DNA from: Candidatus Aminicenantales bacterium
GTDB lineage: Bacteria; Acidobacteriota; Aminicenantia; Aminicenantales; Saccharicenantaceae
NCBI GenBank assembly: GCA_049512315.1
Contig: JBEKXF010000028.1
Location: forward strand, 1 to 43,929
DNA: 43,929 bases
Direction: 5' to 3'
Of this stretch, positions 1,228 through 41,683 are shown one piece after another. How positions within the stretch are numbered: position 1 is the stretch's first letter; the number at the start of each line of letters is the position of its first letter. The notes beneath the pieces are model-generated. The model did no database searches. It was not told the origin of the DNA and was given only the letters and a program-made list of their open reading frames with translations. The translations under genes and the position numbers were made by a program.

Positions 1228-1312
1228 AAGTGCGCCTGGCCTGACTCGAACAGGCGACACACCGCCTTCGGCAGTGCTGGCAAGGCCGGCATGGATGAGG
1301 AATGCGATCCGA
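1228..1312 (-). repeat. tRNA-Arg(CCT)-type 3' half with hairpin insert, copy 1 (putative att site)
   Basis: Minus strand reads anticodon-loop variant TTCCTCA-TCCA-[insert]-TGTC-GCCTG TTCGAGT CAGGC-CAGGCGC-A. Near-identical to the copies at 10687, 12331 and 32954. Confidence 0.85.
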
Positions 1313-1329
1313 CGTTCTTGGGGAGTCAA

Positions 1330-2259
1330 ATGAAACATTTAATCCGTCCTATGCTGCCCACACTTGTGACGGAGCCTTTCAGTCGAGCCGGCTGGATCAA
1401 CGAAGAGAAATACGATGGTTTCCGAGCCTTGGCTCACCTCAGCGGGGACAACGTTAAACTTTACTCGCGCAACCTGAAGAATATAACCGCCGATTATCTG
1501 GAGATTGCCCAAGCGCTCAGAGAACTCTCTGGGGGGGACTTTGTGCTTGATGGGGAGATCGTTGCCTTCGACCAAAAGGGCGTCTCCCGTTTTCAACTCC
1601 TCCAGCGACGCGAGTTCGACGTCAAAGTCCGGCCAATTTTCACTCTCTTCGATTGCCTCGAGATAGACGGGGATGAGATTCTGAAAAAGCCGCTCATTGA
1701 ACGCAGAGAAGCATTGGAGACGATTGTGCCAGTTCGGCATCCATTGCTCATGCGTTCCCGGCTTCTTTCATCAAACGGGCTGACGGCTTATGAAGAGGCT
1801 AAAAGAAGGGGATGGGAGGGGATTGTTGCGAAAAACGATGACTCTCCCTATGAACCGGGGAAACGAACGCGAACCTGGCTGAAGGTCAAATGTCGTAGGG
1901 AATCGGAGTTTGTCATCGGTGGCTATACCCCGCCGGCCGGTCATCGGACTCATTTTGGGGCGCTTCTTGTCGGCCTCTATGACGGCGGGAAACTCTGTTA
2001 CACCGGCAAAGTGGGGACAGGTTACTCCGAAGAGGCTCTGACGGAACTCGCCATGAAAATGAAACCGCTGGCGAGATCAAGATCTCCTTTTGAGCCGACG
2101 CCACGGGAGGGAGACGCGACTTGGGTTCAGCCCATACTCATCGCCCAGGTTGCTTTCGCTGAATGGACGAAGGATGGAAAATTGCGCCAGCCGGCGTTTC
2201 TCGGTCTCCGATACGACAAGAAGCCATCGGAGTGCCAATGGAGGGAACGTGACCGGTAA
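1330..2259 (+). CDS. ligD: ATP-dependent DNA ligase, NHEJ LigD ligase domain
   Basis: Motifs EEKYDGFR, LDGEIV, WEGIVAK, WLKVK and OB-domain LRQPAFLGLR. Start moved to ATG 1330 (GGGAG RBS) because the ATG at 1291 lies inside the repeat. Confidence 0.9.
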   Translation: MKHLIRPMLPTLVTEPFSRAGWINEEKYDGFRALAHLSGDNVKLYSRNLKNITADYLEIAQALRELSGGDFVLDGEIVAFDQKGVSRFQLLQRREFDVKVRPIFTLFDCLEIDGDEILKKPLIERREALETIVPVRHPLLMRSRLLSSNGLTAYEEAKRRGWEGIVAKNDDSPYEPGKRTRTWLKVKCRRESEFVIGGYTPPAGHRTHFGALLVGLYDGGKLCYTGKVGTGYSEEALTELAMKMKPLARSRSPFEPTPREGDATWVQPILIAQVAFAEWTKDGKLRQPAFLGLRYDKKPSECQWRERDR

Positions 2260-3169
2260 AAGAAGATTTGGTGAGGCGGCTAGTGTCGAAAGGGTCAAGA
2301 TCACGCATCCTGACAAAATCTGGTGGCCGGAAGAAAAGATCACGAAGCTCGATGTTGCTCAGTACTATGCGGCCGTGGCCCAGCACATCCTCCCCTGGTT
2401 AAAAAAGCATCCGCTCACTGCTGAACGCTGCCCCGATGGGATGGCAGGGGAATGTTTCTTTCAGAAGAATTTTTCTGAGGATCTTCCTTCCGGTGTCCCC
2501 ACCCGGGCCCTTCCCGCCGAAAGCGCCGGGGAAGTCGTCCATTATGCTATTGGAGGATCGATCAGGACTTTGCTGGCCCTTGTGAACCTCGGATGTATAG
2601 CCGTTCATGTCATGAACTGCCACGTTGATACTCTCGATGATCCTGCCTGGCTGGCCTTCGATCTCGATCCATCCTCAGGAAAATTCTCGGACGCGGCCAA
2701 AGCCGGGGCCGTTCTCCATGGAATTCTGAACGAACTCCGGATCCCATCTTACCCGAAGACCTCCGGTGGAAAAGGCCTCCACGTCTTCGTCCCTTTGAAG
2801 CATAGCCCAAATCAGGAGCAGGTTCGCGAATTCGCCCGCCGGATCAGCCAGGAAATGGTCGATCGGTCACCAGAACTCATCACAGTTCAGATGTCAAAAT
2901 CGAAGCGACATGGCCGTGTTTTTTCAGACTGGCTCCGCAATGCCTTTGGGCAGACGATCGTTGCGCCATACTCTGTGAGGCGACGCCAAAAAGCCCCTAT
3001 TTCCACACCTCTTCACTGGGAAGAAGTGGATCGCAGCCTTGAACCATCATCCTTCAACCTCTTAACGATTGAGCATCGGCTTAAGGGAAAGGATCCGTGG
3101 GCCGACTTCTGGAGGAACCCCCAGGTTCTGCCAAACCTCAAATTGACCTCCCCCTTTTTAAGTTGTTAG
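2249..3169 (+). CDS. stand-alone LigD primase-polymerase (Pol) domain protein
   Basis: ITHPDK, ITKLD, RCPDG, FFQKN, FDLDP, KTSGGKGLHV, APYSVR. Probable GTG start at 2249 overlaps the ligase stop; the exact start is uncertain. Confidence 0.88.
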   Translation: MTGKRRFGEAASVERVKITHPDKIWWPEEKITKLDVAQYYAAVAQHILPWLKKHPLTAERCPDGMAGECFFQKNFSEDLPSGVPTRALPAESAGEVVHYAIGGSIRTLLALVNLGCIAVHVMNCHVDTLDDPAWLAFDLDPSSGKFSDAAKAGAVLHGILNELRIPSYPKTSGGKGLHVFVPLKHSPNQEQVREFARRISQEMVDRSPELITVQMSKSKRHGRVFSDWLRNAFGQTIVAPYSVRRRQKAPISTPLHWEEVDRSLEPSSFNLLTIEHRLKGKDPWADFWRNPQVLPNLKLTSPFLSC

Positions 3170-8847: not shown

Positions 8848-9045
8848 GCCTTGGACCCGGCCTTGGACCTGAGCCCCCGGTTCAGTCCATTTGCCAGATG
8901 CTCACATTATCGCTGGACCAGTTTGAAGTTTCTTTTTGCCGCCTCTGAAGGTCTGGGAGGCTTTCCTTTTGAGCTCGTCTCGAATAAAATCATCAAGACG
9001 CCGATGAAGGGCGAAGAAAAATGAAGTTGGAGAAGGAGCGAAAGG

Positions 9046-10647
9046 ATGAAAAAGAACAAAGGTCTTCAGGCCATCATGATCCTCGTCCTGATCGCGTTCG
9101 GACCGGCGATCCGCGCCTGGGCCCAGGGACTCACGACCTCGCCGAAGCCGCAAGAGGTTAAGCCCTCTCCGGCGGTTGATATCATTTCGGCCATGGAGGA
9201 ATCCTCAGTGACCGAGCACGTGATCCGCATCAAGGGGCAGGTCTTCCCCTACCGGGCCACGGCTGGGACGACGCTTCTCCGCGACGATAAGGGCGAGCCC
9301 ACCGGCCTGATGTACGCCGTGGCCTATACCCGCAGCGACGTCAAGGACCTGAGCACGCGTCCTATCGCCTTCTTCTATAACGGCGGACCGGGCTCGGCAT
9401 CGATGTGGCTGCACATGGGCGCCTTCGGCCCCCGCCGCGTGTTCACGGTGGACGGCGCCTTCACCCCGCCCGCGCCCTACACCCTCGTGGACAACTCCGA
9501 GAGCCTGATCGATAAGACGGATATGGTCTTCATCGACGCCATGGGCACGGGCTACAGCCACGCCGCTGGCAAGGCTCAGAACAAGGACTTCTACGGCATC
9601 GACGAGGACGTCCAGGCCTTCGCCCAGTTCATCCGAACGTACCTAAATAAAAACAACCGCTGGAACTCGCCCAAGTTCCTCGTGGGCGAGAGCTACGGGA
9701 CCTTCCGCTCGGCCGCCCTGGGCCATGCCCTCCAGTCCCGGGACGGGATCCATCTCAATGGGATCGTCCTGATTTCGACCGTCCTCGACATGTCCACGAT
9801 CACCTTCGGCACCGGTGACGACCGACCCTATATTTTCTACCTTCCGAGCTACGCCGCCGTGGCCTGGTATCATCAAGCCTTGAAGAACCGGCCACCGGAC
9901 CTCGACGCCTTCCTGGCCGAGGTGCGCCGCTACGCCCAGGGTGACTATGCTGCGGCCCTGTTCAAGGGCGCCGGTCTCTCCGCCTCGGACAAGCAGGCCG
10001 TGGCCGCCAAGCTGTCCGAGATCACGGGCCTGAGCGTGGAATACTGGCTCAAGGCCAACCTCCGGGTGACGTTGGCCCAATTCAACGTCGAGCTCGAGCG
10101 CGGCCGCGGGCTGACCACGGGTCGCATCGACGCCCGGTTCACGGGCTTCACTCGCGACCTCCTGGCCGAGAACGCCCAGGGCGACCCGGAGGGTCCGGCA
10201 GTGGGCGGCGCCTTCACAGCCCTGCTCAACACCTACAATCATCAGGAACTGCGATTCGGACAGGACAAGACCTATAACACCTCGAGCGGCGGCGCCCGGG
10301 AGTGGAGCTGGCGTCGCCAGCCGATGACGGGCGGATTCCCTGGTGCGCCCAGCACGACGAGCGGCGGTTTCTTTCCCGGCGCGCCCAACGTCGAGTCCGA
10401 CCTCGCCCAGGCCATGGTCATCAACCCCCGCCTTCTCGTCCAGGTCGAGAACGGAGACTACGACATGGCCACCCCGTTCTTCGCCACCGAGTTCACCATG
10501 AGCCATCTCGGCTTGCCTCAGGAACTCCAGGCCAATATCAGGCTGAACTACTATCCCGCAGGACACATGATGTACCTGCACGACGAGAGCCGGGTGAGGC
10601 TCCACGACAACATCGCCGCCTTCATCGACCGGGCGACGCAGAAATAG
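9046..10647 (+). CDS. peptidase S10 family serine carboxypeptidase, secreted
   Basis: NGGPGS, GTGYS, GESYG (catalytic Ser), YDMATP, AGHMMY; signal peptide. Confidence 0.92.
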   Translation: MKKNKGLQAIMILVLIAFGPAIRAWAQGLTTSPKPQEVKPSPAVDIISAMEESSVTEHVIRIKGQVFPYRATAGTTLLRDDKGEPTGLMYAVAYTRSDVKDLSTRPIAFFYNGGPGSASMWLHMGAFGPRRVFTVDGAFTPPAPYTLVDNSESLIDKTDMVFIDAMGTGYSHAAGKAQNKDFYGIDEDVQAFAQFIRTYLNKNNRWNSPKFLVGESYGTFRSAALGHALQSRDGIHLNGIVLISTVLDMSTITFGTGDDRPYIFYLPSYAAVAWYHQALKNRPPDLDAFLAEVRRYAQGDYAAALFKGAGLSASDKQAVAAKLSEITGLSVEYWLKANLRVTLAQFNVELERGRGLTTGRIDARFTGFTRDLLAENAQGDPEGPAVGGAFTALLNTYNHQELRFGQDKTYNTSSGGAREWSWRRQPMTGGFPGAPSTTSGGFFPGAPNVESDLAQAMVINPRLLVQVENGDYDMATPFFATEFTMSHLGLPQELQANIRLNYYPAGHMMYLHDESRVRLHDNIAAFIDRATQK

Positions 10648-10686: not shown

Positions 10687-10808
10687 AAGTGCCCCTGGCC
10701 TGACTCGAACAGGCGACACACCGCCTTCGGCAGTGCTGGCAAGGCCGGCATGGATTAGGAATGCGATCTGAGAACTGGCATCCTTCAGGGGAAAAGCGGA
10801 TTTTCCCC
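10687..10808 (-). repeat. tRNA-Arg(CCT) 3' half with hairpin insert, copy 2, plus flank shared with copy 4
   Basis: Minus strand ATTCCTAATCCA-[TGCCGGCCTTGCCAGCACTGCCGAAGGCGGTG]-TGTC GCCTG TTCGAGT CAGGC CAGGGGC A CTT. Flank GAGAACTGGCATCCTTCA...TTTTCCCC recurs at 14067-14105. Confidence 0.9.
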
Positions 10809-10926: not shown

Positions 10927-12141
10927 TTATGCTCTGATGAAATCGGAAGGAACATCCTTCAACCTAACGATATCCTGTATCCTGTCCTTGATGTCGAACC
11001 CGGCGATGCAGGTGACGCTGCAAACATCACATTTTTCGCATGGTTTGCCGGATACGTCAACAGTGTTGAGTGTGCGCCGGGCCTGCTCAACATTTCGGTA
11101 CCCATAAGCGTACATATAACTGCGCATCAGGGTAGGAATGTCCAGGTTATTCGGGCACTGGGGTATACACTTCTGACACTGATGACAGTATAAACCGGGT
11201 TCTGATTTGAGATCCGCCAGGTTGAGATCTTTCAGTTCCTGATCGGAAATTTTCAGGTTCTTGATCATCTCCAGGTTTTTTTGCAATTCTTCAACTGTAG
11301 ACATTCCTGAAACAATGCTCGAAATGTTTTTATTCTGAAGCACCCATTTCAAGGCGGCATTGGTATTCAGCGGTTGTGTCCTGTTCTTATCCTGGGCGGC
11401 ACCGGCGGTTGTTTTCATGGCGACGATGCCCATTCCCGCCTTCGCCGCGTAAGCCAAGGCTTCGTTCATGGCTTCCTTATTTTCGGTCTTGTAATTGTAT
11501 GCGGTCATCGCCACATCGTACACCTTGGCGTCGGCGGCGGCCCTGAGAGCCTCCTCGCAGAAACCATGCGTGGCGATACCCGCAAAGCGTATTTTGCCCT
11601 GTTTCTTAAGTTCCGTCATGGCTTTTAATATCGGATCGAACATGACGGATTCCCTTTTGCCCGCGAAAGGCAACAATAGGATATCCACATGATCGAGTCC
11701 GAACCGTTTCAGGCTTTCCTCCGCCGTCTTCATGTAAGCCTGGGCATTCATGTCTTTGGGCAAAGTGCCTGCCCGGGGATTGAAGCCTTCGGGAGTAGCA
11801 GCCGTTCCGACGACAAAAGAATCGCGCGGCAGGTCTTTCAATGCCTCGCCCACCAGCCTTTCATTGTTTCCCTGGCCATAATAGGTGGCTGAAAAGAACA
11901 GCTTGATACCCGCATCATATCCCATCCTGATAAAATTGGGGCTGGTGGCACCACTGGTACCCATGCTGATCAGCGGGGTCTTGATCCCGGTTCTCCCCAG
12001 TTTACGGCTGGCTAATGTGGGGACAGCACCCTTTTCACCAAATTCTCCGAAAGAAGCTTTCCATGTTCCCGGGATAAAAGCAGCGCCGCACATCCCGATG
12101 AGGCTCTTTTTTAGGAATTCACGACGCTGGTTTTTTCCCAT
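10927..12141 (-). CDS. aldo/keto reductase with Tat signal and C-terminal 4Fe-4S motif
   Basis: RREFLK, RKLGRTG, YGQGNNE..VGEAL, GIVAMK, CHQCQKC...CP, CEKCDVC. Confidence 0.88.
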   Translation of the reverse strand: MGKNQRREFLKKSLIGMCGAAFIPGTWKASFGEFGEKGAVPTLASRKLGRTGIKTPLISMGTSGATSPNFIRMGYDAGIKLFFSATYYGQGNNERLVGEALKDLPRDSFVVGTAATPEGFNPRAGTLPKDMNAQAYMKTAEESLKRFGLDHVDILLLPFAGKRESVMFDPILKAMTELKKQGKIRFAGIATHGFCEEALRAAADAKVYDVAMTAYNYKTENKEAMNEALAYAAKAGMGIVAMKTTAGAAQDKNRTQPLNTNAALKWVLQNKNISSIVSGMSTVEELQKNLEMIKNLKISDQELKDLNLADLKSEPGLYCHQCQKCIPQCPNNLDIPTLMRSYMYAYGYRNVEQARRTLNTVDVSGKPCEKCDVCSVTCIAGFDIKDRIQDIVRLKDVPSDFIRA

Positions 12142-12207: not shown

Positions 12208-12238
12208 AAATTTATCACCGGCCGGGCGGCCATGTCAA
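12208..12238 (-). promoter_or_regulatory. sigma70-like promoter for the aldo/keto reductase
   Basis: Minus strand TTGACA, 18 nt, TAAATT, about 70 nt upstream of the ATG. Confidence 0.45.
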
Positions 12239-12330: not shown

Positions 12331-12400
12331 AAGTGCCCCTGGCCTGACTCGGACAGGCGAGACACCGCCTTCGGCAGTGCTGGCAAAGCCGGCATGGGTT
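12331..12400 (-). repeat. tRNA-Arg(CCT)-type 3' half with hairpin insert, copy 3 (truncated at the anticodon stem)
   Basis: AAGTGCCCCTGGCCTGACTCGGACAGGCGAGACACCGCCTTCGGCAGTGCTGGCAAAGCCGGCATGGGTT; four substitutions versus copy 2. Confidence 0.85.
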
Positions 12401-12432
12401 CTGAACGGGCCTCAGGGCAAGGCATCCTTATC

Positions 12433-12462
12433 TTGACAGCGGTTCGGACCGGGCGATATAGT
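12433..12462 (+). promoter_or_regulatory. sigma70-like promoter for the amidohydrolase
   Basis: TTGACA (12433-12438), 18 nt, TATAGT (12457-12462). Confidence 0.6.
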
Positions 12463-12531
12463 CGTCTCGAGATGGCAGGGTCGTGCCGGATTCTCTTCTC
12501 ATTCCGGTTTGAAACGAAAGAGAGGATGCCC

Positions 12532-13974
12532 ATGAAAACACGCCTTCCGAGCGCCGCGGTCTTGCTCGCCGGTCTGTTGATCATATCGCAACTGGCGGCC
12601 GGGGCCTCCATCAAGAAGAAAGATGAAGCCGTGGCCTCGATCGAACGGCACAAGGCGGAAATCATCCATCTTAGCGATCAGGTCTGGGGCTTCGCCGAAA
12701 CCGCCCTGCTCGAGACCCGATCATCGAAGGCGCTTGCCGACTATGCCGAAGAGCAGGGCTTCACGGTCAAACGCGGTGTCGCGGGATTGCCGACGGCGTT
12801 TGTGGCGACCTACGGGGAGGGCCGGCCGATCATCGGTGTCCTCGGCGAATACGACGCCCTGCCGGGCCTGTCGCAGAAAGCCCAGCCCGTGAAGGAAGCG
12901 GTGCAGGTCGGCTCGCCGGGCCATGGATGTGGGCACAATCTGTTGGGCACGGCGGCCCTCGGAGCGGCTCTGGCCGTCAAGGACCTGATGGCCGCGGGAA
13001 AACTCAAGGGCACGATCCGCTTCTACGGCACGCCCGCCGAGGAAGCGGTGGGCGGCAAGGTATACATGGCCCGCGAGGGGCTGTTCATCGACCTCGACGC
13101 CTGTCTGACCTGGCACCCCGACGAGAAGACCCGGGTCTCCGTCGACGGCTCGCAGGCGATCGTCGACTTCATCGTCGAGTTCAGCGGCAAATCCGCGCAC
13201 GCGGCGGGCGACCCCTGGAACGGGCGCAGCGCGGTGGCGGGTCTGGAGTTCTTCGCCACGGGCCTGAACCGCATGCGCGAATTCGTCAAGCCCACCGTCC
13301 GCATGCACTACTCGATCCTGAACGGGGGCGACGTGCCGAACGTGGTGCCGGCCTACGCCAGGCTCTGGTGCTGGCTTCGCGATTCGAAGGGCGCCGGAGT
13401 CGAGCAGCTGCTCGGCCGTGCGCGCCGGATCGCCGAGGGCGCGGCCATGATGGCCGAGGTTGGATCGAAACTCACGGTCCAGGGGGGCGACTGGGAGACC
13501 CTCGTCAACATGACCGGGGAAAAAGTGATGTTCGCCAACCTCACGTGGCTCGGCCCGATTCTGTTCACGCCGGAGGAGCAGGAATTCGCCAAAGAGATCC
13601 AGCGCGCGGCGGGCGTGGATCCCAAGGGCCTCGACGGCGCGGTTCAGCCATGGATGGCGCCGAAGGCGGATCCCGAGGGCGGCTCGACGGATGTCGGCGA
13701 CGTAAGTTGGATCGTTCCCACTCTGAGTATGAACGCCACAACCGCGCCCGTGGACGCTCCCTGGCACGCCTGGCCCGTGGTCGCCTGCGGTGGAATGTCG
13801 ATCGGACACAAAGGGCTTGTCTACGCGGCCAAAACTCTGGCGGCGACGATGGTGGACCTGTTCGAGGACACGAAGACTCTCCAAGCCATTCAGGCCGAGT
13901 TCCGGGAGAAAACGAAGGGCGTAATCTACAAGCCGTTTATTCCCGACGGGCCTCCTCCCCTTCCGAAGCACTGA
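12532..13974 (+). CDS. M20D amidohydrolase, AbgB (p-aminobenzoyl-glutamate hydrolase B)-like, secreted
   Basis: GEYDALPG, GHGCGHN, GTPAEE, WHP, GSTDVGDVSW; signal peptide. ATG 12532 follows AGAGGA. Confidence 0.85.
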   Translation: MKTRLPSAAVLLAGLLIISQLAAGASIKKKDEAVASIERHKAEIIHLSDQVWGFAETALLETRSSKALADYAEEQGFTVKRGVAGLPTAFVATYGEGRPIIGVLGEYDALPGLSQKAQPVKEAVQVGSPGHGCGHNLLGTAALGAALAVKDLMAAGKLKGTIRFYGTPAEEAVGGKVYMAREGLFIDLDACLTWHPDEKTRVSVDGSQAIVDFIVEFSGKSAHAAGDPWNGRSAVAGLEFFATGLNRMREFVKPTVRMHYSILNGGDVPNVVPAYARLWCWLRDSKGAGVEQLLGRARRIAEGAAMMAEVGSKLTVQGGDWETLVNMTGEKVMFANLTWLGPILFTPEEQEFAKEIQRAAGVDPKGLDGAVQPWMAPKADPEGGSTDVGDVSWIVPTLSMNATTAPVDAPWHAWPVVACGGMSIGHKGLVYAAKTLAATMVDLFEDTKTLQAIQAEFREKTKGVIYKPFIPDGPPPLPKH

Positions 13975-14011
13975 CTCGTGCCGGGGAGTTCTCGATCGCC
14001 TCGTTCGGGCG

Positions 14012-14105
14012 AAGTGCCCCTGGCCTGACTCGAACAGACGACACCTGGATTAGGGGAATGGGATCCGAGAACTGGCATCCTTCAAGGGGAAATCAGGTTT
14101 TCCCC
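14012..14105 (-). repeat. tRNA-Arg(CCT)-type 3' half without the insert, copy 4
   Basis: Minus strand CCTAA TCCAG GTGTC GTCTG TTCGAGT CAGGC CAGGGGC A: normal anticodon-stem 3' strand, variable loop, T-arm and acceptor 3' strand. Shares its distal flank with copy 2. Confidence 0.88.
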
Positions 14106-14228
14106 ATATGATTTGTAACAAATCGGCGGGGTAGTCTGCCCGGCAAGCTTGCTCACGTCTTTTTTCTCATTAAAGCTGGATCATTTATAAGGGAGAGAGA
14201 GATGCTTGGGGCGAACGCTGGTGTCCGG

Positions 14229-32953: not shown

Positions 32954-33032
32954 AAGTGCCCCTGGCCTGCCTCGAACAGGCGACACACCGCCTTCGGCAG
33001 TGCTGGCAAGGCCGGCATGGATTAGAAATCCA
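32954..33032 (-). repeat. tRNA-Arg-type 3' half with hairpin insert, copy 5 (loop reads TCT)
   Basis: Minus strand TGGA TTTCTAA TCCA-[insert]-TGTC GCCTG TTCGAGG CAGGC CAGGGGC A. Preceded on the plus strand by AT-rich TAACTTATTGATAT. Confidence 0.88.
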
Positions 33033-37876: not shown

Positions 37877-37930
37877 AAGTGCCCCTGGCCTGACTCGAAC
37901 AGGCGACCTCCGGCGTGACAGGCGGCGTTC
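37877..37930 (-). repeat. copy 6: chimeric tRNA fragment with Asp(GTC) anticodon arm and Arg(CCT)-type T-arm/acceptor
   Basis: Minus strand GAACGCCGC CTGTCAC GCCGG AGGTC | GCCTG TTCGAGT CAGGC CAGGGGC A CTT. Confidence 0.8.
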
Positions 37931-41608: not shown

Positions 41609-41683
41609 CGCGCCCGGAGGGATTCGAACCCCCGATCTTTGGATTAAGAGTCCAACCCTCAATCCAACTAAGCTGCAGGCTGC
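41609..41683 (-). pseudogene. degenerate full-length tRNA (Arg-type scaffold, CTT anticodon)
   Basis: GC(A)GCCTG CA GCTT AGTTGGATT GAGG G TTGGA CTCTTAA TCCAA AGATC GGGGG TTCGAAT CCCTC CGGGCGC G. Bulged acceptor, U8 changed to C, broken D stem, no CCA. Confidence 0.7.

Follow-up and report, generated by a model that had tools for sequence, protein, structure and literature searches.

Copies of tRNA halves are standard landmarks of genomic islands and are normally assumed to be exact and able to rebuild the tRNA. A family of sites in an uncultured bacterium departs from this assumption and raises the question of what a short, hairpin-bearing insert is doing inside several 3′ halves of tRNA-Arg(CCT), and how it came to be there. 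The sites lie in a stretch of 43,929 nt (the window), which is the entire contig C28 of the draft genome G000 of Candidatus Aminicenantales (77 contigs, 3.55 Mb, 60.8% G+C). The insert is probably a heritable module in the attachment site of small mobile cassettes, whose target within one Aminicenantes family is the anticodon loop of tRNA-Arg(CCT).

An earlier note, made from the letters of the window alone, had described a 32-mer that contains the insert. This word is found four times on the minus strand, against 0.00 matches expected from 100 shuffles. A 28-mer from the T arm and acceptor strand matches six times, in these four copies and at 14016-14043 and 37881-37908. The insert of 30 nt is shared by four of the six tRNA-Arg(CCT) 3′-half copies in the window, and copy 4 lacks it, as the note had stated. 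The copies are as follows.

1230..1303, minus strand: copy 1, a 3′ half that spans anticodon loop to discriminator base and contains the 30-nt insert (32-mer at 1260-1291)
10689..10762, minus strand: copy 2, a half-site with the insert (32-mer at 10719-10750), upstream arm of the hairpin type, downstream arm A-like
10763..10808, minus strand: upstream (P-type) arm of copy 2, with the hairpin GGGGAAAA..TTTTCCCC and then ..GGATGCCAGTTCTC..
12333..12406, minus strand: copy 3, a half-site with the insert (32-mer at 12363-12394, with one mismatch, a C-to-T change), between two divergent sigma-70-like promoter matches
14014..14060, minus strand: copy 4, a half-site without the insert, reading ..AATCCAGGTGTCGTCTG.. 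/ ..AATCCAGGTGTCG.., its upstream arm of the same family as that of copy 2
32956..33029, minus strand: copy 5, a half-site with the insert (32-mer at 32986-33017), downstream arm of type A
37879..37907, minus strand: copy 6, T arm and acceptor strand only, without anticodon part or insert, downstream arm of type B (..TTCACCGATTCTGAAG..)

Alignment of the four insert-bearing copies delimits a conserved block of ~74 nt with sharp edges and unrelated sequence on either side. The genome's only tRNA-Arg(CCT) gene, on contig C24 (complement of 45426-45501), reads ..TCCATGTGTCGCCTG.. / ..AATCCATGTGTCGCCTG.. and is without the insert; relative to it the net gain is exactly 30 nt, as claimed. The insert is always placed between bases 1 and 2 of the variable loop, with a boundary that is ambiguous by 2 nt (1260-1289 to 1262-1291 in copy 1) because TG flanks both of its ends. 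The two hairpins of 7 bp that it contains agree with their earlier description. CACTGCC-GAA-GGCGGTG (hairpin 2) has a T.G pair and belongs to the tRNA-sense (minus) strand, and TGCTGGC-AAG-GCCGGCA (hairpin 1) contains a G.T pair when read on the plus strand and a C.A mismatch when read on the minus strand. ARAGORN predicts no tRNA in the window, and Rfam finds no family at the half-sites, its sole above-threshold match in the window being an unrelated tRNA-like sequence at 41612-41680. Copy 1 sits ~27 nt ahead of the likely ATG (1330) of an ORF for a LigD ligase domain, and the type A arm of copy 5 (..TTTTCCCCACATAAGC.., with TTTAAG-type repeats) resembles the arm behind the live tRNA on C24. 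The P-type arm family of copy 2 recurs at copy 4, on contigs C34 and C50, in the related genomes G003 and G009 and on metagenome contigs, both with and without the insert.

Beyond the window, the genome contains 11 partial copies of tRNA-Arg(CCT), distributed over contigs C24, C27, C28, C34 and C50, together with the intact cognate gene on C24. Six of the 11 carry the insert: a short-word BLAST search of the 3.55-Mb genome recovers it at full length four times on C28, once on C34 and once on C27, in each case within a tRNA-Arg half, the next best match being 13 nt long. The five halves without it are C24:8521-8564, C27:1916-1949, C50:1531-1573 and copies 4 and 6 of the window. Since the insert is absent from the rest of the genome and from the working tRNA, it is neither a dispersed REP nor a tRNA feature. 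Five of the genome's copies share a C in hairpin 1 that is almost specific to G000, despite their differing arms, which speaks for gene conversion, or for one site variant being used again and again, rather than for simple descent.

Candidate origins of the insert within the host's tRNAs were tried and rejected. For a derivation from its own tRNA or an inverted copy of the T arm, 1793 of 2000 shuffles score as high in direct orientation and 469 of 2000 as reverse complement; for a derivation from any of the genome's 49 tRNAs, 276 of 300 shuffles do so.

The distribution of the insert is narrow. A query of 62 nt centred on it matches in 10 of 246 genomes of the order, all from one family (f1; 9 of 86 genomes besides G000) and four genera, with at most three candidates scored per genome, so that copy numbers are lower bounds. 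All the genomes are draft assemblies from metagenomes, in which arrays are broken at repeats and mis-joins are possible there; the relatives are not independent of one another, and the site counts per genome are to be read as minimum values. Exact-pattern scans add 10 stretches on genome contigs and 12 on metagenome contigs (several of the latter from the window's own assembly) and give no insert match among viral contigs. The pooled collection comprises 29 distinct insert-bearing sequences, 27 flagged automatically and two added by eye, and further sites that are decayed or linked to the rsmA gene were found beyond it. Throughout the tRNA-Arg(CCT) halves of the 10 genomes, orientation and position of the insert are constant.

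The insert exists in three length forms of 21, 30 and 63 nt, of which the 30-nt form is the common one. The 21-nt form, at one site of G009, is without exactly one of three 9-nt units that each start with TGCC. The 63-nt form, found in G035, G015 and G170, has a longer palindrome in place of the first hairpin region, and an inverted copy of hairpin 1 is part of that palindrome. All three forms contain hairpin 2 (CACTGCC-NNA-GGCGGTG), with five loop variants (GAA, AAA, CAA, GGA and TGA), and it is the expandable hairpin 1 that differs. The insert is 85-100% identical across the four genera, where the adjoining arms have diverged beyond alignment; what is conserved is the 74-nt block, insert included, beyond which the arms differ. 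Of the 30 columns of the insert, 11 are invariant in 21 aligned copies, as against 16 of the 44 tRNA-derived columns.

The half-sites of the window separate att-flanked tandem units of 1.6 to 19 kb, which hold metabolic or cargo genes only and no genes for integration or transfer. Examples of cargo are LigD ligase and primase-polymerase domains, a BNR/sortilin protein, an S10 peptidase, an aldo-keto reductase, an M20 peptidase, a sodium:solute symporter, bacillithiol-type biosynthesis genes, dehydrogenases and TPR proteins. No recombinase is encoded among the 37 larger ORFs of the window, a six-frame search of its contig for tyrosine recombinases (PF00589) gives no match, and no conjugation genes were seen among its ORFs; serine recombinases (PF00239) have three matches in the genome, none of them on array contigs. 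Only at the C34 copy does an integrase gene adjoin an insert-bearing half, and this integrase has no close orthologue in 60 relatives (best identity 43-54%). A tie between integrases of the C34 type and the insert was considered and rejected, some distant relatives adjoining tRNA-Arg(TCG/CCG) genes and not insert-bearing halves. The half-sites themselves contain no promoter or terminator match; promoter matches are situated in the arms, as on both sides of copy 3.

12433..12462, plus strand: sigma-70-like promoter match in the arm beside copy 3 (TTGACA-18-TATAGT, 11/12), facing the M20 peptidase gene (conserved start near 12534)
12209..12238, minus strand: sigma-70-like promoter match on the other side of copy 3 (10/12, with TG), facing the aldo-keto reductase cassette gene (10927-12141, minus strand)

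Tandem accretion at a tRNA gene is a known pattern, of which these arrays, with their mostly integrase-less units, are an instance. In G009 the intact tRNA follows recO, ftsX and fpg and is itself followed, on the same strand and downstream, by at least 10 further sites over 73 kb. The cargo of this array consists of small gene groups that include TIR, SIR2-like, AAA_13 and MutS-like genes, and the 73 kb contain no tyrosine recombinase (PF00589). Single cassettes are met again in other genera, with a nucleotide identity of 88-91%, against 76% for a neighbouring native gene, and a near-identical cargo protein of 300 amino acids is common to G000 and G009. The S10 and M20 peptidase genes are adjacent in G009, without a half-site, at the place where G000 has copy 2, the aldo-keto reductase gene and copy 3; this difference is not explained by a single site-specific integration. 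Contigs assembled from four DNA runs break at the repeat, with a summed depth that is about four-fold, and their loose ends correspond to the genome's other copies; on these contigs no clean joint removing the insert or a cassette was seen, nor any circular cassette or attP junction. One of the runs has a skip of 3.3 kb between the shared arms of copies 2 and 4, the short side of which measures only 23 nt. Among 24 runs, none of RNA contains the region.

Where the exchange takes place can be approached through a second locus, in genus g6, at which an insert-bearing half lies directly at the end of the single-copy gene rsmA, with the stop codon inside the anticodon-loop homologue. Among 30 rsmA 3′ ends of this genus, four have a half with the insert (the long form in G035, G170 and G015, the 30-nt form in G159), two have a tRNA-like T arm without it (G176 and G181), one has an anticodon-like end only (G158), and the others end differently. 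Because native rsmA ends, such as ..CTGGATACCTGA.., are similar to the anticodon arm of the tRNA, the end of this gene looks like a secondary landing site. The rsmA gene of G000 has no such half-site.

Comparison of two of these genomes gives access to an individual integration. Directly behind rsmA, G015 has 2.1 kb more than G035. This extra DNA has one ORF, for a TPR protein, and lies between direct repeats, each at least 73 nt long, in which the long insert is contained. At the left junction, the rsmA end runs into a 3′ part that has an insert variant of its own and a decayed T arm and is followed by a type-B arm, and at the right junction a new upstream arm is joined to the 3′ part, insert and downstream sequence of G035 type. 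The two 3′ parts keep both their own insert variants and their own downstream arms. The comparison thus indicates that a single-gene cassette was inserted by an exchange located at the TAAT of the anticodon-loop homologue or 5′ of it, hence 5′ of the insert, both partners being insert-bearing; this mapping concerns one event in one comparison, in which G035 takes the place of the ancestor. The model predicts that the insert is linked to the type of downstream arm, but this linkage is weak: fixed motifs give 7 sites with insert and arm A, 6 with insert and arm B, 2 without insert and with arm A, and 7 without insert and with arm B, which is not significant (Fisher p = 0.20), and a classification by hand had looked stronger.

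Could the insert have a life of its own, in a tRNA or as a mobile palindrome? The earlier note had proposed an enlarged variable arm or an intron of the parent tRNA, and had asked whether the functional gene carries the insert. The gene of G000 does not, nor does any of the 19 full-length tRNA-Arg(CCT) genes (15 in the pooled collection and four added later), and the proposal is not supported. Nine of the 10 insert-bearing genomes have such an insert-free gene, the tenth, G003, being 62% complete. It is highly improbable that a functional tRNA-Arg(CCU) with an enlarged arm exists in some donor lineage and that the rebuilt tRNA still works. An exchange 5′ of the insert does predict that such tRNAs form upon integration, and the insert is located exactly where class II tRNAs bear their extra arm; the interval between variable-loop bases 1 and 2 is known as the one place of the 3′ half where long insertions are structurally tolerated. 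Yet a tRNA 5′ half lies upstream of 0 of ~33 insert-bearing sites, ARAGORN predicts no tRNA at 12 loci centred on insert-bearing halves, and the four live tRNAs that are followed by element arms (in G000, G002, G007 and G009) are all insert-free. A very unlikely alternative of another kind is that the insert is a tiny REP- or MITE-like palindrome, autonomous or driven by a transposase, with the variable loop of tRNA-Arg(CCT) as its narrow target, which entered many times independently and was purged from the live tRNA. Its occurrence with several unrelated arm families, the presence of one arm family with and without it, the nested second insertion or expansion in genus g6 and six Y1-transposase matches (PF01797) in the genome speak for such an element. 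Site-specific recombination 5′ of the insert would, however, reassort the arms in any case, and the flanks of the six transposase matches hold no insert copy, so that the link to a RAYT or TnpA-REP gene raised in the earlier note was not borne out. Moreover, neither G000 nor the other loci examined have a copy beyond the tRNA-Arg(CCT) halves (seemingly insert-only matches in relatives are decayed tRNA halves), position and orientation are identical everywhere, and no target-site duplication is found apart from the TG dinucleotide. The scenario in which a mini-element entered the site once and was copied with each later integration is therefore retained in part: the copying agrees with the fixed position and orientation in 10 genomes and on metagenome contigs and with the insert in both partners of one integration, and the REP/REPIN label is dropped, the genome-wide search with the insert alone having returned no stand-alone copy.

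The hairpins can be assessed through their stability and their variation. In the 30-nt form they are no more stable than shuffled sequence, with z-scores that run from -0.43 to -1.43 when the insert is folded by itself and from -0.07 to -0.53 when a 77-nt half-site is (either strand, RNA or DNA). The 63-nt form folds into a stem of ~16 bp followed by an unchanged hairpin 2; its z is -3.24 for the tRNA-sense strand, a value matched by 1 of 200 shuffles, and -2.36 for the antisense strand. Pairs were counted in 21 aligned 30-nt copies, from which the short form, the three long ones, identical rows and a copy with a deletion of 1 nt had been left out. On the sense strand, pairing in hairpin 2 amounts to 97.3%, with four pairs that vary one-sidedly and none with a double change, and three single-base changes preserve the pairing on this strand (U.G to C-G, A-U to G.U and C-G to U.G). 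Hairpin 1 is 81% paired, with a central C.A mismatch in 19 of 21 copies and one double change from G-C to A-U. The T arm, a helix that is here no longer under tRNA selection and serves as control, is 97.1% paired without a double change. Stem covariation across homologues, which the earlier note had put forward as a check, did not emerge: 43-44 of 500 shuffles reach the observed values, the T-arm control scores alike, and there is one compensatory pair. These pairing data are compatible with the hairpins and are not a demonstration of them; the variable loop of hairpin 2 on a near constant stem is suggestive only. Also considered and rejected was a fold resembling a cloverleaf, made up of the insert, the T arm and the acceptor strand: it is the minimum-energy RNA structure, but its z is -0.07 and variants break the proposed closing stem of 4 bp.

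Two further readings turn on what these structures do. According to one, which we regard as unlikely, the hairpins are functional recognition structures that fold in single-stranded DNA or as a cruciform, like integron attC and the attP of CTX phage, and direct a tyrosine recombinase acting in trans. The two-hairpin layout of the 30- and 63-nt forms, the constancy of hairpin 2 with its varying loop at all three lengths, the sense-strand stability of the long form, the three pairing-preserving changes and the organization of cassettes as single genes without integrase are all in its favour. They are set against the shuffle-like stability of the 30-nt form, the lack of significant covariation relative to the T-arm control, the use of insert-free half-sites in the same arrays with the same arm families, the promoter-like sites that cassettes possess, unlike those of integrons, and the fact that no IntI-like gene or attI was identified, the generic PF00589 search of the arrays giving no match. 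According to the other, the insert is a functionless neutral scar, produced by a one-off slippage or fold-back duplication in an ancestral attP and carried recently as a hitch-hiker by a successful cassette family. The 9-nt TGCC phasing, the 21-nt form reduced by one unit and the 63-nt form with its inverted hairpin 1 are typical products of slippage and template switching, the insert varies about as much as the adjoining non-functional tRNA remnant, and its distribution is patchy (10/246 genomes). We nevertheless doubt strongly that this is the whole story, given an insert that is conserved over four genera next to unalignable arms and a hairpin 2 that is kept in every length form; this reading overlaps with the preferred explanation and differs from it only in whether the hairpins act.

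The preferred explanation, that of a heritable attachment-site module, would work as follows. The site borne by a cassette reproduces the tRNA from its anticodon loop through to its 3′ end and has gained a constant hairpin of 7-8 bp (CACTGCC-NNA-GGCGGTG) directly after the first base of the variable loop; ahead of this hairpin stands a second one, absent in the 21-nt form, of 7 bp in the 30-nt form and of ~16 bp in the 63-nt form. Strand exchange would occur in the anticodon-loop homologue, 5′ of the insert, and the insert would therefore travel with the cassette-borne tRNA 3′ half and its downstream arm, staying behind at internal junctions of the array whenever another cassette lands. The cassettes, mostly without an integrase, would presumably be moved in trans by a trans-acting integrase. 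Recombination between an insert-bearing site and the live tRNA would yield a rebuilt tRNA with 30 extra bases. Because no tRNA gene with the insert was seen, we infer that the live (front) copy is kept clean by selection, or by repair through a later insert-free cassette; the four insert-free live tRNAs followed by elements fit either, although the cases are few. The insert would have arisen, and would still change its length, by slippage and palindrome extension, and it would persist inside a block that is carried along by site-specific recombination. Its hairpins may provide a site for protein binding or bending, or a structural element, or they may just as well be a passenger, tolerated and lengthening through slippage and the extension of palindromes; a function is kept in consideration because hairpin 2 is constant and the long form folds strongly.

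A bolder version, which is speculative and improbable as a whole, would make of these elements an integron-like cassette system. Its sites would be tRNA-Arg(CCT) 3′ halves with a two-hairpin module (constant hairpin 2, expandable hairpin 1), by which a recombinase encoded elsewhere would tell the sites of cassettes from the live tRNA, and single genes with their own promoters would be shuffled at the tRNA, within the array and at the rsmA look-alike site while the tRNA is left unbroken. If the hairpins are indeed recognition structures, these sites would constitute a tRNA-based analogue of integron cassettes. In practical terms, the insert is a marker that separates cassette-derived from host-derived tRNA halves, and half-site finders that expect contiguous identity would split or miss the sites that bear it. 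It also raises a testable question, namely how a recombinase or selection keeps an interrupted site off a functional gene, and it reveals a pool of single-gene cassettes without integrase that is common to several genera of an uncultured phylum, as well as an apparent secondary landing site where a housekeeping gene ends.

Among known systems, integron attC sites offer one point of comparison. Integron cassettes are single genes with imperfect palindromic sites of variable length, and their recombinase is encoded elsewhere. The likeness lies in the working only, single-gene cassettes being here also separated by imperfect palindromes of variable length; unlike in integrons, the core of the site is derived from a tRNA, the cassettes have promoter-like sites, no IntI, attI or Pc was found, and the generic PF00589 search of the arrays gives no match. 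With REP/REPIN sequences and their RAYT transposases the insert shares the character of a short, GC-rich imperfect palindrome, but it is not dispersed, its six copies all being in one kind of tRNA half, and it has no link to the six Y1-transposase matches.

Closer relatives of the arrays are found among islands that target tRNA genes. Williams is said to have described, in 2002, genomic islands targeted to tDNA with anticodon-centred att sites. Such islands are catalogued by Islander (PMC4383910), which has an anticodon-centred class of att sites and, in the portion of the paper available, lists only four tandems of three or more. As far as that portion describes them, Islander-type islands resemble the present ones in their tandem arrays and in direct repeats of the tRNA 3′ part that begin their identity in the anticodon loop and are oriented as the intact cognate tRNA, an orientation that G009 displays with all sites on one strand downstream, the copies of G000 being spread over separate contigs. 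Exchange at a defined sublocation is a further likeness, placed here in the anticodon-loop homologue by the one event of G015 versus G035. Measured against the same portion of the paper, the present sites differ in that the element-borne tRNA copy is interrupted by a hairpin module of 21-63 nt and cannot restore a tRNA as it stands, as insert-free copies would. Most units do not have the integrase of their own that Islander uses as a criterion, only the C34 copy being followed by one. The array of G009 reaches at least 11 sites in 73 kb, and in genus g6 the end of a protein gene, rsmA, would serve as a secondary site.

Tandem accretion is likewise documented for CIMEs related to ICESt1 and ICESt3 (PMC5704250), att-flanked units without integration genes that accumulate at one target where newcomers insert at a resident element's att site. 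On the strength of the excerpt available, the integrase-less tandem units described here are alike, the G015 unit being reduced to one TPR gene. They are unlike CIMEs in consisting mostly of one to few genes with their own promoter-like sites and in recurring in other genera; because small units of this kind recur, the cassettes look like a standing pool rather than decayed ICEs. Tycheposons of Prochlorococcus (bioRxiv 10.1101/2020.12.28.424599), as the accessible part of their description has it, are anchored at tRNAs, push older elements inward by successive integrations, and scatter partial tRNAs among adaptive cargo. The anchoring at a tRNA, the growth by successive integrations that displace older elements inward, the scattered partial tRNAs and the adaptive cargo are shared features; tycheposons are described as carrying their own integrase and replication modules, and the same part of the description mentions no hairpin-interrupted partial tRNA. 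In the literature, to the extent of the texts available, no account was found in which a conserved hairpin module interrupts the tRNA copy borne by an element, and none of tRNA islands in Aminicenantes. Relative to these partly available sources, the arrays themselves are of a known kind, that of tDNA islands, CIME-type accretion and tycheposon-like elements, and what is new is the tRNA copy borne by an element and interrupted by hairpins.

Cargo genes carried between the tRNA-Arg(CCT) 3′-half copies are common to the source genome and G009, a relative from a different genus. Between the two genomes, identity is 88-91% for the S10 and M20 peptidase genes, against 76% for a native neighbour, and a protein of ~300 aa, encoded directly behind a type-A downstream arm, is near-identical in both genera.

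window 8938-10647 and 12428-14044: S10 and M20 peptidase genes of the source genome
G009:C5:1826919-1830194: S10 and M20 peptidase genes of G009
L002:2016-2915 (contig C27 of the source genome) and L027:3303-4208 (G009): gene of the ~300-aa protein

The ~300-aa protein, without a Pfam match, is probably membrane-bound or secreted. In G009, by sequence, ~45 nt separate the S10 gene from the M20 gene, with no half-site in the gap; in the source genome the gap holds an aldo-keto reductase gene and two insert-bearing halves.

The G009 genes belong to a large array. In G015, another relative, direct repeats 73 nt long or longer border both sides of a cassette that is missing from the same place in G035.

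G009:C5:1,764,973-1,837,990 (L026-L029): 73-kb array with at least 11 tRNA-Arg(CCT) sites, behind recO-ftsX-fpg-tRNA
L033:3569-5662 (G015:C114): 2.1-kb cassette with one gene, for a TPR protein, and no integrase

No tyrosine recombinase was found in the 73-kb array, whose cargo includes TIR, SIR2-like, AAA_13, KaiC-like and MutS-domain genes and looks like anti-phage defence.

Several further features lie within the window.

1291-3169, plus strand: LigD-type ATP-dependent ligase and primase-polymerase domains in two overlapping ORFs (1291-2259 and 2090-3169)
12209-12238, minus strand: near-consensus sigma-70-type promoter match, toward the AKR gene
12433-12462, plus strand: near-consensus sigma-70-type promoter match, toward the M20 gene
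10763-10808 and 14061-14106, both minus strand: upstream arm with CATATGGGGAAAA..TTTTCCCC, also in loci L003, L004, L007, L008 and L055-L059
41612-41680, minus strand: tRNA-like sequence, scored at 40 bits by the Rfam tRNA model over its positions 3-68

The LigD-type ORFs directly adjoin half-site copy 1; the mechanical start of the ligase ORF, 1291, is the edge of the insert, and the ATG at 1330 is the likely start. Both promoter matches point away from copy 3, which suggests that the arms supply the cassettes with promoters of their own. The inverse of the upstream-arm motif is present in the type-A downstream arm as TTTCCCCATAT, so that inverted repeats flank the core on either side and may represent putative arm-type binding sites.

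In three metagenome loci of one lineage (L055, L058 and L059), an identical C-to-T change, GCCAG to GCTAG, spotted post hoc, occurs at two places, insert hairpin 1 and the acceptor strand 39 nt downstream.

The tRNA-like sequence has a Lys(CUU)-like anticodon loop, CUCUUAA, and an unpaired acceptor-stem top; ARAGORN called no tRNA at this position, and contig C14 of the source genome carries a regular tRNA-Lys(CTT). Possible identities of the window sequence are a tRNA pseudogene and a further att-type remnant.

In genus g6, a look-alike of the tRNA-Arg(CCT) anticodon loop contains the 3′ end of single-copy rsmA (ksgA), and a tRNA 3′-half copy follows the gene, either without an insert or with one of 30 or 63 nt, depending on the genome.

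L093 (G035:C9), L094 (G170:C24), L097 (G015:C114) and L107 (G159:C31): rsmA-linked sites
L103, L109 and L099: further rsmA-linked sites

Judged from these sequences, the cassettes appear to have a secondary landing site in genus g6, where a housekeeping gene ends.
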